64,000 nt of DNA, from the NCBI GenBank assembly GCA_035285325.1, contig JAYKJB010000009.1, positions 10,910-74,909 of the forward strand, read 5' to 3'. Position numbers and translations under genes: made by a program. The notes beneath the pieces are model-generated. The model saw only the letters and a program-made list of their open reading frames with translations. It searched no databases and had not been told where the DNA came from. Shown piece by piece: positions 39,281 to 58,727 of the stretch (its first letter is position 1; the number at the start of each line of letters is the position of its first letter). Origin of the DNA: Candidatus Sericytochromatia bacterium. Its GTDB lineage: Bacteria > Cyanobacteriota > Sericytochromatia > S15B-MN24 > JAQBPE01.

Positions 39281-39351
39281 GAGCCGGTGATGGGAATCGA
39301 ACCCACGCCCCAAGCTTGGGAAGCTCGTTTGCTACCATTACAACACACCGG
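39281..39351 (-). tRNA. tRNA-Gly (anticodon CCC)
   Basis: The reverse complement folds as a cloverleaf: acceptor stem GCCGGTG/CACCGGC, D-arm TTGT-AATGGTA-GCAA, anticodon stem-loop CGAGC-TTCCCAA-GCTTG, and a T-arm GTGGG-TTCGATT-CCCAT. No CCA is encoded. Confidence 0.85.
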
Positions 39352-39394
39352 CAGCGCGTGTTGGCGGTATTGTAGGCCGCCAGCCATCGTGGCG

Positions 39395-39922
39395 TCAAGG
39401 GAGCGCAGGAGCGGGGGTGGCAAGCGCCACCAGCGCCGCACGCAAACTGAGATAGGGGGTGACACCCTCGAATCGGGCGCGAACCTGCCCCTGAGGGGTA
39501 ACCAGGACATAGGTGGGCGTCCGTTCGAGCGCCAGCGCCTCGGCCCAAGCAAATCCCTGCAGGTGCTCGGGCGTCCCGGGCTTGAGACGGTCCAACACGA
39601 TGCGCCGCACGCGCACCTGGCCGGCGAATTCGGATTCGAGGCGGGAGACCACGGGACCCATGGTCAGGCAGGCCGGTCAACGGGAGCCGTCGAAGACCAG
39701 CAGGGTCGGCGCGGATTGCGGCCCGAAGCGCAAGGCCTGCAGGCGCGGCGGTAATGGCTCGGGCGCGGTGGGCAGCACACATCGCACCAGCAGCACCGCC
39801 AGCACGGCGCCCCAGAGCAACCGGTCGAGCCAGCGACTCCAGGCCACCCGAACGTTGGCACTTGGCCAGGTCAGCGGTGTCACGCGATGGCCCCTCCTGA
39901 GCGGGCAGGCCGGGCGGCTCAA
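39395..39922 (-). CDS. membrane-anchored thioredoxin-fold protein interrupted by a single in-frame TGA (candidate selenocysteine; otherwise a pseudogene or two ORFs)
   Basis: Track ORFs 39677..39922 and 39395..39661 are in the same frame. They are separated only by TGA (39677-39679) plus five sense codons. The read-through gives ...PTLLVFDGSR-U-PACLTMGPVVSRLESEFAGQVRVRRIV...TPTYVLVTPQGQVRARFEGV. This resembles the thioredoxin pattern ...[21 protein letters not shown]...PTLLLF.NG. The TGA sits where the first Cys of CXXC is expected. Confidence 0.45.
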
Positions 39923-39945
39923 CGACAGCGCAGCCTGGCCTCGGA

Positions 39946-39984
39946 AAGAAAAACGCGGCGCTCTTTGGAAGAACGCCGCGTTTT
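39946..39984. terminator. bidirectional Rho-independent terminator at the tRNA-fMet 3' side
   Basis: AAAAACGCGGCG-CTCTTTGGAAGAA-CGCCGCGTTTT. Perfect 7-bp G+C stem (CGCGGCG/CGCCGCG) extended by A-U pairs, flanked by an A-run and a T-run. Confidence 0.6.
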
Positions 39985-39988
39985 GCAG

Positions 39989-40062
<74 letters not shown>

Positions 40063-56151: not shown

Positions 56152-57576
56152 TTGGCCTCCGAGATTCAGCCCAATCGCCCCACGGGGAAGGTGCCCGGCG
56201 GCTTGCCGAGCTCCGACTCCGTTCATATGAACACCCGAGGCGGTAACGGCCGGGGTGGCGGACGCCGTCGCCAAAACCCGGACGACGAGCCGGAGGAGGG
56301 CCCCGCCTCCAGTGAGGAGGAAGGCAAGCTCGAGGCGGATTCCTTTCTGGGGGCCAGTGCCTCGTCCCAGATGGCCCAGCTGTTCTCCGAAGCCCTGCCG
56401 TGGGAAGGGGCGCAGGCCGAGCCCGCTCCCCACCCGCCGCAAGGGCGCACGCCAGGCCCACGCCTGAAGGGTGCGACGCCCTTGCCCCCCAGGACGACCA
56501 AGCTCTCGAACCCGGGAGCTCAGGGCTCGAGCGCGGGCCAGGGCGACACGGACCTGGCACACATCCGGATTCCGGAGGCCCCCACCGCCAGAAGGACGCC
56601 CCTCGCTCCGCTGGTTCCTCCCGGCAGCGGACGCCGCGTCGATGCCCACTTCGATCCCACGGCGGCGCTCAACCAGACCATCCTGGCGCAGCAGGAGCTG
56701 CAAAATCGAAAGCAGGAAGCGCCGCCTCCCTCCGTCACTCCGGTCCTGCCATCCCAGCAAGGGGCAACGGAAATCTCGCGTTTGCTGCGACAGCCCACCC
56801 CCTCCGTGGCGCCGGTCGTGCCGCCACTGGAGGCCGAACCGTTCGTGGGACCGGTGCTGCCCACCGAAGTTCCAGACCAGAGCGAGGTCGGGGCGGGAGC
56901 CGCCACAGTTCCGGAGGCGAACCGCTCCCCCATTCCCCCGCCGCCTGCCCCCTCGGGGGGCCCCGCCCGTTCTCCCCTGCCCTCGCGTCCCGTGCCTCCC
57001 CCGGCGGCGGACCCGCGCCGCCCTGCCCCCGTCGCGCCCCCGCCGCCGGCAAACCACGCGCCCGGCGAAGGCCTCTCCGCGGCGCACGCCACGCCCGGCG
57101 GGGCACCTGAACGCCCACGCGCCCCCACGTTGCCGAATGCCCCAGAGGCCAAGGGAATCGCCGCGCGCTCCCCGGAGCGACCCCGCCTTTCCGCGCTCTC
57201 GGATGCGATCGAGGCACTCCCCGTGCTGACGGCCGCTCCCCCCCAGGCGGCCCCCCCTCATTCGGAACCACAAGCTCCGGCCAAGGCCGGAGGTCCGGCG
57301 TCGAGCGGACGCGCCGCCTGCATGTACCGGGTGGTGGACCTGCTGACGGACATCCCCGTTGCGCGGGCCCGGATCGAGATTGAGCCCCTGCACGATGACC
57401 TGCTGCCTGTCATCAACGGTCAGACCGACAGCGATGGATGGTTCAGGCAGTCGGACATTCCCCCCGGGGAGTATCGCGTGGCGGTTCGGGCAGCGGGCTA
57501 TGTCCCCGTCTACAAGGAACGTGGCCTGGCACCATCGAGCATCGATGACCTGGCGATATTTCTCGCAAAGCCGTGA
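56152..57576 (+). CDS. proline-rich protein with C-terminal carboxypeptidase-regulatory-like (transthyretin-like) domain
   Basis: TTG start with a GAGGGAG RBS. About 380 aa of Pro/Ala-rich low complexity are followed by ACMYRVVDLLTDIPVARARIEIEPL...GQTDSDGWFRQSDIPPGEYRVAVRAAGYVPV. No signal peptide. Confidence 0.5.
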   Translation: MASEIQPNRPTGKVPGGLPSSDSVHMNTRGGNGRGGGRRRQNPDDEPEEGPASSEEEGKLEADSFLGASASSQMAQLFSEALPWEGAQAEPAPHPPQGRTPGPRLKGATPLPPRTTKLSNPGAQGSSAGQGDTDLAHIRIPEAPTARRTPLAPLVPPGSGRRVDAHFDPTAALNQTILAQQELQNRKQEAPPPSVTPVLPSQQGATEISRLLRQPTPSVAPVVPPLEAEPFVGPVLPTEVPDQSEVGAGAATVPEANRSPIPPPPAPSGGPARSPLPSRPVPPPAADPRRPAPVAPPPPANHAPGEGLSAAHATPGGAPERPRAPTLPNAPEAKGIAARSPERPRLSALSDAIEALPVLTAAPPQAAPPHSEPQAPAKAGGPASSGRAACMYRVVDLLTDIPVARARIEIEPLHDDLLPVINGQTDSDGWFRQSDIPPGEYRVAVRAAGYVPVYKERGLAPSSIDDLAIFLAKP

Positions 57577-57989
57577 GGCGTTCGCAGACAGCGCGGCTCG
57601 GGAGCGTTTCAGACGAACCATGACTCTCTGGCAAGGCGCAGGGGGACGCCCTGCTCGACGTCCCTCTGCGACGAGCGGCGTTGCCATCCACGCGCAGCGT
57701 CCGCGATGTTGGCCGTGCTCATCGCCACCCCGCGATGAGGCCTTGATCACAACATAAGCTTTTCCTGATCTGAAGTTTGTATCTCGCAGCAGGTCCTGCG
57801 GAATATTCCGTTCGAGCCTGCAAAGTCGCGTGATGCTTGCACAATGTGAAACTGACGGCCCTTCCGCTTCACAATACATTACAATAATTACCACTGCTTC
57901 ACAAAAGTTGACTGGAAGTGATTTTCGCGATCCGATACGATCATCCTTGGCTTGGAAACCAACCTCCCAAACTCACGAAGGAGACCTGA

Positions 57990-58727
57990 ATGAACAAGGT
58001 GTACGCCGGCGCGAGTCCGAAGGAGAAGGAAAAACTCGTCAACGAGTATCTGCCTCTCGTCCACAAGATCGCGCGGGGCCTTGCTCGTCGTAGCACCGAC
58101 CCGGTGGATGACCTGATTCAGGTGGGTTCGATCGGGTTGCTCGAAGCGATCAATCGCTATGAGACCGGTCACAACACGGAATTCAAGACCTACGCGGTCC
58201 ATTTCATCACGGGCCACATCCGGCACTATCTGCGGGACAGGCAGACCCTGGTGCGGGGCCCGCGCGCCCTCCAGGAACTCTCCTACCGCTTGCGGCAAGT
58301 CACCCAGGAACTGGGTCACCGCTTGGGACGCGAAGCGACGAACCAGGAACTGGCCGACACGCTCAACGTTTCGACGGACCTGATTGACCAGGCCCGCGTG
58401 TACGACCGCCGCGTCACCGTGATGTGGCTCGACCAGGAGACCGGCGACGGCGAGGAAGACGAACAACGCTCGTTGCTCAACACCCTGGCTGATCCGACCA
58501 CCAGCAACGCGCATCAAAACGAGCGAGATGAACGCTTGGTGCTGACGGAAGCCATGAAGCACCTGCCCGACCACCAGCGCGAGTTGCTTCAGATGCGTTA
58601 CTTCGACGACCTGACCCAAGCGGAACTCAGCCGTCGTCTGGGCATCAGCCAGATGGAAGTCTGTCGGCGGCTGAAGAAGGCCGAAAAAGGACTGCGGCTG
58701 ATCGTCTCCAACGCGCCGGCGCGCTGA
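57990..58727 (+). CDS. RNA polymerase sigma factor, sigma-70 family group 3 (SigB/SigF-like)
   Basis: GAAGGAG RBS. Region 2 DLIQVGSIGLLEAINRYETGHNTEFKTYAVHFITGHIRHYLRD and region 4 LTQAELSRRLGISQMEVCRRLKKA. 245 aa. Confidence 0.85.
   Translation: MNKVYAGASPKEKEKLVNEYLPLVHKIARGLARRSTDPVDDLIQVGSIGLLEAINRYETGHNTEFKTYAVHFITGHIRHYLRDRQTLVRGPRALQELSYRLRQVTQELGHRLGREATNQELADTLNVSTDLIDQARVYDRRVTVMWLDQETGDGEEDEQRSLLNTLADPTTSNAHQNERDERLVLTEAMKHLPDHQRELLQMRYFDDLTQAELSRRLGISQMEVCRRLKKAEKGLRLIVSNAPAR

Follow-up and report, generated by a model that had tools for sequence, protein, structure and literature searches.

A membrane-anchored thioredoxin-fold gene of Candidatus Sericytochromatia with an in-frame UGA and its probable decoding as selenocysteine

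A single reading frame across an internal TGA codon

A 64,000-nucleotide stretch of contig JAYKJB010000009.1 from a Candidatus Sericytochromatia bacterium (assembly GCA_035285325.1), referred to here as the window, contains a minus-strand gene between positions 39395 and 39922 whose reading frame is interrupted by a TGA codon. An initial sequence-only reading had proposed that this codon specifies selenocysteine (Sec) at the first position of a thioredoxin-type redox motif. The listing of open reading frames (ORFs) placed exactly two minus-strand ORFs here, 39677..39922 (81 aa) and 39395..39661 (88 aa), both in one frame, and translation of 39395-39922 gave a lone internal stop, ...APTLLVFDGSR*PACLTMGPVVSRLESEF.... 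This stop is the TGA at 39679-39677, which is followed by the codons CCG GCC TGC CTG ACC and then by ATG 39661. The listing and the translation thus agree with the initial description of two same-frame ORFs parted only by a TGA and five sense codons. Third-codon-position GC content (GC3) was 0.85 and 0.76 in the two halves of the gene, which is a coding-type composition.

Although the frame of the gene was assigned correctly in the sequence-only reading, its start at TTG 39922 was not retained. We placed the likely start at GTG 39883 because a Shine-Dalgarno (SD)-like AGGAGG (39893..39898, minus strand, as are all features of the gene given below) lies 9 nt 5′ of this codon and because the starts of the orthologues align with it. 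The SD-equivalent place in the orthologues is occupied by AGGGAG, GGGAGG or GAGGA. From GTG 39883 the read-through coding sequence (CDS; 39395..39883) would comprise 162 codons plus a TGA stop at 39395-39397, and the internal UGA (39677..39679) would be codon 69, the proposed Sec codon U69.

The predicted protein begins with an N-terminal transmembrane (TM) anchor of about residues 18-33 (WLDRLLWGAVLAVLLV, 39785..39832), which was recognized in alignments and is followed by a conserved R-C-V-L-P motif. A thioredoxin-fold domain, assigned by profile matches and a homologue model, spans about residues 55-155 (39419..39721). U69 takes the first position of a U-P-A-C redox motif, and Cys72 (TGC, 39668..39670) is the probable resolving cysteine of this U-x-x-C arrangement. 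Further downstream, the cis-Pro loop T122-P123-T124 (39512-39520) is invariant among the aligned homologues.

Comparison of the closer orthologue pairs gave dN/dS values of 0.09-0.17 for the 20 codons before the TGA and of 0.12-0.46 for codons +11 to +44 after it. By this measure purifying selection acts on each half of the gene in one common frame. Changes in the five codons that part the TGA from the ATG are all synonymous or conservative (GCC/GCG, TGC/TGT, Leu/Val/Ile, Ala/Thr), and the synonymous alternation of TGC and TGT among homologues at Cys72 shows that these codons are translated. TGA is also the stop codon of 34 of 47 GC3-selected window ORFs, the terminator of this gene included; since it is the main stop in the window, a reassignment of the codon is excluded. 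A search for other same-frame, TGA-split ORF pairs with coding-like GC3 in the window and in the related loci L002-L005 and L009 returned only ordinary adjacent or antisense ORFs.

Homologues with TGA or cysteine at the same column

Among 5.8 billion proteins searched, the read-through query matched one, an 89-residue ORF corresponding to the C-terminal half. The contig that encodes this match (L001) carries a syntenic tRNA-Met, the gene, tRNA-Gly and the same small downstream gene, with an in-frame TGA at the same place. Scanning one genome per GTDB species yielded four loci, all from metagenome-assembled genomes (MAGs) labelled Candidatus Sericytochromatia, each located between tRNA-fMet and tRNA-Gly(CCC) and each reading FDGSR-TGA-PAC, and L008, the seventh locus, came from a scan of metagenomes. 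With the C-terminal half as query, an exhaustive HMMER search found 21 proteins, consisting of short ORFs starting with MGP[VM]V and of full-length proteins (144-157 residues or more). For six of the short ORFs (P0003, P0004, P0005, P0007, P0008 and P0017) we inspected the contigs. In all six, the TGA that ends an upstream ORF stands exactly 15 nt ahead of the ATG, and reading through this codon produced the same protein architecture as the window gene. TGA therefore stands at one and the same column in 14 distinct genes. These were assembled independently and come from Sericytochromatia MAGs and from soil and compost metagenomes (the window, L001-L005, L008, L009, L011-L014 and two paralogues in L019). 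Identity of these Sec forms to the window protein extends down to about 45%. Assemblies of Candidatus Sericytochromatia that carry the gene include JAYKIL01, JAYKHR01, JAYKHL01 and JAKFEW01.

In the window the gene lies between tRNA-fMet (CAT; 39988..40062, minus strand) and tRNA-Gly (CCC; 39281..39352, minus strand), both of which were identified by ARAGORN and Rfam. The former bears the C1xA72 mismatch and the GGG/CCC anticodon-stem pairs that are hallmarks of an initiator, as read from its sequence, so that the position first given for the gene was confirmed. These tRNA genes serve as synteny markers and are no part of the function of the gene. The tRNA-fMet flank is common to L002-L005, L011 and L019, and the tRNA-Gly flank to L001-L005, L008, L013, L019 and L020. 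L019 is clearly syntenic with the window and shares with it the genes for ETF-QO, a sigma factor, a DUF1232 protein, a holin-like protein, tRNA-fMet, tRNA-Gly, PFK and ACCase. This locus (L019:9632-10800, JGI Ga0558720_03135; also L020) contains tandem paralogues, both of which have an in-frame TGA and the same downstream hairpin, with the motifs U-A-P-C (TGA 9983) and U-P-A-C (TGA 10498).

Public records contain only part of the protein. The NCBI entries P0023 (MEB3285624.1) and P0025 (MFN3429182.1), and those of the L002 and L009 family, hold only the C-terminal 85-91 residues, and such Candidatus Sericytochromatia records bear the name 'hypothetical protein' or 'TlpA family protein disulfide reductase'.

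Eight full-length homologues (P0006, P0009-P0014 and P0018) have cysteine at the TGA column, in the form C-P-[SAG]-C or C-L-A-C, and share the N-terminal anchor and a YRFVLP-type motif. The orthologue check proposed at the outset thus found TGA at this column in 14 genes and Cys in eight full-length homologues. Alignment of the Sec-form and Cys-form profiles with hhalign extended over the full length (probability 99.95%, E 1e-38) and placed R-U-P-A-C on H-C-P-S-C. When the Sec-form profile was compared with the PDB, thioredoxins were matched (6zom, E 1e-5) and U fell on the first Cys of WCGPC. These alignments bear out the initial placement of the TGA at the first redox Cys.

The Cys homologues matched PF00085 at 1e-8 and PF13098 at 3e-9. 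The window protein itself remained below the Pfam gathering thresholds of both families (PF00085, 13.7 bits with a cut-off of 23.5; PF13098, 19.6 bits with a cut-off of 27). Only TraF (PF13728) was nominally over threshold (24.8 vs 23), and other matches within the thioredoxin clan were weak. Its closest Cys homologue, P0009, exceeded the PF00085 threshold (26.6 vs 23.5). An AlphaFold model of P0009 (mean pLDDT 88) consists of a single long helix, residues 8-30, followed by a thioredoxin domain with the order beta-alpha-beta-alpha-beta-beta-alpha, in which Cys64 stands just before helix 65-80 and the TPT cis-Pro loop precedes strand 3. Classical thioredoxins were the top Foldseek matches of this model in the PDB (TM-score about 0.75-0.83, normalised to the target). 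The model and these matches indicate that both the fold and the TGA placement of the sequence-only reading, a TM anchor joined to a thioredoxin fold, were correct. As judged from the alignments, the PDB profile match and the homologue model, the window product is a membrane-anchored thioredoxin-fold protein with TGA at the column of the nucleophilic Cys.

Among the Cys forms, P0014 (312 aa) is fused to an N-terminal DUF547 domain, and P0006 (L016:1642-8438) adjoins a lanthipeptide cluster with genes for a LanB-type dehydratase, a LanC-like protein and an ABC transporter and with a 43-aa ORF. No function was consistently suggested by the genes around P0006 and P0013.

The hairpin downstream of the UGA and the surrounding window

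Bacterial Sec insertion sequence (SECIS) elements have been modelled as hairpins with a loop of 3-9 nt, a stem of 4-16 bp, a G within the first two loop positions, a distance of 16-37 nt from the UGA and a dG of -7.5 kcal/mol or less (bSECIS model; PMC13188914, Fig. 2 legend). The mRNA of the window gene can form the hairpin GACCAUGG-GUC-CCGUGGUC (39647..39665; 8 bp, loop 39655-39657), which starts 11 nt past the UGA and occupies positions 15-33 counted from the U of that codon. It is the dominant element in both the minimum free energy and the centroid folds. The hairpin lies within all limits of the model: its loop is GUC (3 nt), or GGUCC (5 nt) with the innermost G-C pair open, and begins with G followed by U, its stem is 8 bp long, and a spacing of 19 nt separates it from the UGA. 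It was found in all 14 Sec-form genes, with a dG of -8.8 to -10.7 kcal/mol at the 12 loci folded.

The whole putative SECIS region (39637..39676) includes a possible weak lower stem in the RNAalifold consensus, in which C5-G6-G7 (39675-39673) would pair with U41-C42-G43 (39639-39637). Its three outer pairs are kept in six or seven of seven sequences and its inner pairs are poorly kept, and we assign the lower stem to the SECIS only tentatively.

The hairpin closely resembles the element of Escherichia coli fdhF (NC_000913), in which the UGA is followed by 11 nt and then by GGUUGCAGGUCUGCACC, with G22-G23-U24-C25 at the apex. The spacer has the same length in both, and G22-G23-U24-C25 stand at identical positions from the U of the UGA. 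The window stem is longer and perfect (8 bp vs 3+3 bp), its loop may have 3 nt (GUC) or, alternatively, 5 nt (GGUCC) where that of fdhF has 4, and its lower stem is weak. The bulged U17 of fdhF has no counterpart in it. G23 and U24 are the key contacts of SelB.

Several features of the alignments indicate that the hairpin itself has been maintained. Pairing was retained in 97.9% of the cells of the 12-locus alignment. The closing pair is G-C in six and C-G in four of the 12 sequences, and further stem changes convert U-G to U-A in four sequences and G-U to A-U in two. Third-codon-position entropy is 0 at codons +5 to +9, compared with 0.8-1.9 for most of the codons around them. U24 comes from a Gly codon that is GGT in 14 of 14 Sec-form genes, although GGT makes up 12.7% of the Gly codons in window genes. 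P0009 provides a natural control, since this Cys form encodes the same AMGPVV peptide with GGG CCG and lacks the GGUC hairpin. Geometry contributes as well: a stricter fdhF-like arrangement, with G23 and U24 in a stem of at least 8 bp, was found after only two of the 1741 TGAs of the window. We regard conservation of the hairpin as decisive support for its assignment as a SECIS, the published criteria alone being loose.

The sequence-only reading had reported no convincing SECIS within 40 nt of the UGA, which was wrong given the conserved hairpin at 39665-39647, and the error ran against its own hypothesis. Folding of the downstream sequence and comparison with bacterial SECIS models, the check it had recommended, instead revealed a hairpin that is conserved and lies within the published constraints. 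The small stem that it had noted farther downstream, CGAAU-CCGA-AUUCG, does exist in the window, but we rejected it as a SECIS because it is conserved in no orthologue. The other GGUC-loop look-alike at fdhF spacing, GCAGCAGGUCCUGCGG at 57771-57805 (plus strand), was rejected as a chance match because it is intergenic and inside no ORF; it lies in an AT-rich spacer upstream of a sigma-70 gene (57990-58727).

The neighbours of the gene in the window are the tRNA genes and genes for an ArAE-type transporter, a GH1 glycosidase, ETF-QO and PFK. A 474-aa ORF at 56152-57576 (plus strand) is of low complexity and rich in Pro, Ala and Arg, with a C-terminal CarboxypepD_reg as its sole domain. It sits where GC3-based gene calling gave no gene, and a 413-aa CarboxypepD_reg protein is encoded at the equivalent place of L019. 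A promoter-like sequence, TTGACG-18-TACAAT (39369-39398, minus strand), lies 5′ of tRNA-Gly, and its -35 hexamer includes the TGA stop of the selenoprotein gene (39395-39397). A second such site, TTGACA-17-TACGAT (40096-40068), lies ahead of tRNA-fMet, and none was found for the selenoprotein gene. Between tRNA-fMet and this gene, at about 39943-39985 (minus strand), the hairpin AACGCGGCG/13-nt loop/CGCCGCGTT followed by TTTTTCTTT is terminator-like. The terminator scan missed it because its loop exceeds 8 nt.

Probable selenocysteine decoding, its alternatives and its implications

The conserved TGA, the Cys homologues, the alignment to thioredoxins and the conserved hairpin all support the original Sec hypothesis. 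The conservation of the UGA and of the hairpin, the cysteine of the homologues, the thioredoxin fold and the TM helix were each observed directly. In our judgement the locus is very probably one genuine selenoprotein gene, predicted from its sequence to encode a 162-residue, single-pass membrane-anchored thioredoxin-fold oxidoreductase with the motif U69-P-A-C72.

Other explanations of the internal TGA have to be compared with this one. If a thioredoxin-like gene had been inactivated by a nonsense mutation, or if the assembly were in error, the internal stop codon itself would be explained and nothing beyond it. The same TGA recurs in 14 distinct genes, each independently assembled, both of its flanks are under purifying selection, and the gene has no other lesion or frameshift. 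The earlier argument that a pseudogene would rarely have its only lesion at the catalytic position of two intact halves is borne out by these data, and we consider the probability of this explanation negligible. A division into two small genes would comprise a membrane peptide of 68-81 aa ending at the TGA and an 88-aa protein starting from ATG 39661, possibly by termination-reinitiation, with the conserved sequence around the ATG acting as an initiation signal. Gene callers and NCBI do annotate ORFs of 81-97 aa starting with MGP[VM]V, and the ATG is present in 14 of 14 Sec-form genes, always 15 nt past the TGA. However, the five codons past the TGA are kept as P-A-C-[LVI]-[AT] with synonymous changes, inspection of the sequence revealed no SD-like motif ahead of ATG 39661, and this ATG is buried in the 8-bp stem, which would hinder initiation. 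Moreover, the split would cut the thioredoxin fold between strand 1 and helix 1 with loss of the redox motif, whereas the Cys homologues are single unbroken ORFs over the same alignment. Selection on both sides of the TGA, the conserved codons that follow it and the lack of an SD motif together rule out a pseudogene and make two separate genes very unlikely.

Translation through the UGA might also occur without selenium. Under this explanation a near-cognate tRNA (Trp, Cys or Arg) stimulated by the hairpin, or a lineage-specific decoding, would read the codon in a group lacking Sec machinery. This alternative gains from the failure to find such machinery in about 207 kb of related DNA and from the reported lack of Sec use in Cyanobacteria (PMC9312934). 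Conversely, the UGA stands exactly at the column of the nucleophilic Cys, where Trp or Arg would abolish activity, and Cys could be inserted more cheaply by a TGY codon, as it is in the Cys homologues. Furthermore, the hairpin reproduces the spacing and the GGUC loop of the SelB-binding fdhF element, and TGA terminates most window genes. We therefore view selenium-free read-through as improbable.

A number of observations weigh against the selenoprotein interpretation or parts of it. Pfam searches of 43 of the 47 GC3-called window ORFs and of ORF 56152-57576 detected no SelA, SelB or SelD domains and likewise none of Sco, Cox, CcdA or DsbD, and no gene for a redox partner or client is located near the gene in the window. 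ARAGORN and Rfam found no tRNA-Sec in the 64-kb window. The search of the roughly 207 kb of related DNA, which recovered none of selA, selB, selC and selD, is uninformative for whole genomes; in tblastn, the SelA, SelB and SelD proteins of E. coli had no significant match in the window or in any locus. According to a review, Sec use seemed to be missing from Cyanobacteria (PMC9312934), and in the literature searched we found nothing relevant linking Sericytochromatia or Cyanobacteriota with selenocysteine. With respect to the hairpin, the generic bSECIS criteria were passed by 224 of 1741 window TGAs (13%) and are non-discriminating on their own because the window is GC-rich. Covariation is limited, as five of the eight pairs are invariant and 19 of 500 shuffles reached the observed score. 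The bulged U17 of the fdhF element is absent, and Rfam gave no match for the hairpin, either at gathering thresholds in the window or at E <= 10 in 39550-39750; these searches reported only the two tRNAs and noise, and Rfam does not capture bacterial SECIS elements. Finally, the structure model is that of the Cys homologue P0009 and not of the window protein, and the charges flanking the TM helix of the window protein are nearly balanced, which leaves its topology ambiguous. It is in the Sec machinery of the host genomes that most of the doubt, and most of the interest, of the finding lies.

From the cis elements we infer that the UGA at 39679-39677 would be recoded by the standard bacterial route. 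The hairpin, located within the CDS of the mRNA and 11 nt past the UGA, would present its GGUC apex and recruit SelB.GTP.Sec-tRNASec to the ribosome, so that Sec would be inserted at the UGA in place of termination. By analogy to thioredoxins, the selenolate of U69 would attack a substrate disulfide and Cys72 would resolve the mixed selenenylsulfide. Among the weakest steps of this scheme is the topology, in which the N terminus would lie inside and the catalytic domain would probably be extracytoplasmic. This orientation is suggested by N-terminal flanks that are richer in positive charge in several members and by the Cys forms P0012 and P0014, whose long N-terminal extensions have no signal peptide and carry positive charges clustered at their end, ahead of the TM helix. 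The lipoprotein-type signal of a distant relative, P0020 (E 2e-4; L021:2195-2614 and L022:1441-1860), points the same way. The gene for this relative reads FSDP-TGA-CCG-CAG-TGA, with UGAs at both CxxC positions (U-P-Q-U), and has a CCCAU-CGUGA-AUGGG hairpin downstream. It is located directly after SCO1/SenC and CtaG/Cox11, proteins of the kind that TlpA serves as clients, and such a location is suggestive of a TlpA-like function in respiratory copper-centre maturation. The physiological substrate, likewise among the weakest steps, might then be found among Sco, Cox or cytochrome c maturation clients, the cysteines of which would be kept reduced by a TlpA/ResA/CcmG-like reductant. We put forward the extracytoplasmic TlpA-like role only tentatively and would lean slightly away from it at present.

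Thioredoxin-fold selenoproteins of the UxxC type are long established and include thioredoxin, thiol:disulfide interchange, thiol-disulfide isomerase-like and DsbA-/DsbG-like proteins (PMC1088965, Table 3; PMC13188914, Table 1). The known examples (PF00085, PF13098, cd02966) resemble the window protein in fold, in the replacement of the N-terminal Cys of CxxC by Sec, in the existence of Cys homologues and in a bacterial SECIS inside the CDS just past the UGA. The window protein differs from them in scoring below the PF00085 and PF13098 thresholds, in having its own TM anchor with a W..R...YR[CF]VLP signature, in its U-P-A-C motif and in its identified hosts, the Sericytochromatia. None of the curated NCBIfam selenoprotein models matched; the best were SaoT (NF040730), HUIPC (NF047660) and Trx7/PDZ (NF041199), with E values of 0.08-0.26 and scores of about 12 bits (HUIPC about 12 against a cut-off of 105). 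Given that no such model matches and that NCBI holds only truncated entries, the protein is by sequence a new, so far unannotated member of the known UxxC class. TlpA, ResA and CcmG (DsbE) similarly combine an N-terminal membrane anchor with a thioredoxin-like domain and a C-P-x-C-type motif, and one truncated orthologue has been named a TlpA family protein by NCBI. In contrast to these proteins, the P0009 model has a minimal thioredoxin fold with classical thioredoxins as its nearest structures, the Redoxin and AhpC-TSA models are essentially unmatched (Redoxin in one of eight Cys forms, E 0.004), and no ccdA, dsbD, sco or cytochrome-maturation gene stands beside the window gene. The cyanobacterial thylakoid protein slr1796 (NCBIfam NF038096) is also small and thioredoxin-like and comes from the cyanobacterial phylum. 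Its model gave a weak full-domain match (E 0.055), seen in three of six members, but at 13 bits against a cut-off of 140 the window protein is no member of that family.

The mechanism itself is unsurprising, as UxxC thioredoxin-fold selenoproteins are the commonest kind known. What the finding adds to the prokaryotic selenoproteome is a Sec/Cys family that has no curated model, and with it a systematic mis-annotation, since public records hold only the C-terminal 81-97 residues of a full thioredoxin-fold selenoprotein. Its SECIS is very clean and close to that of E. coli, so that E. coli may be able to express the gene as a selenoprotein; biochemical tests would then be easy.

The Sericytochromatia are non-photosynthetic relatives of the oxygenic cyanobacteria and form their sister class. 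We regard this host lineage as moderately noteworthy for Sec use. A more speculative extension, which we think less likely to be right than wrong, is that the Sericytochromatia hold a working Sec-decoding system in the service of an expanded, lineage-restricted and membrane-anchored family, with its tandem U-A-P-C/U-P-A-C paralogues and its U-P-Q-U lipoprotein, that acts as a selenium-based reductant for the maturation of respiratory copper or haem centres. The gene implies Sec decoding in the Sericytochromatia, although Cyanobacteria have been cited as a lineage without Sec (PMC9312934), and its host lineage bears on whether the Sec trait was lost only in the oxygenic branch.

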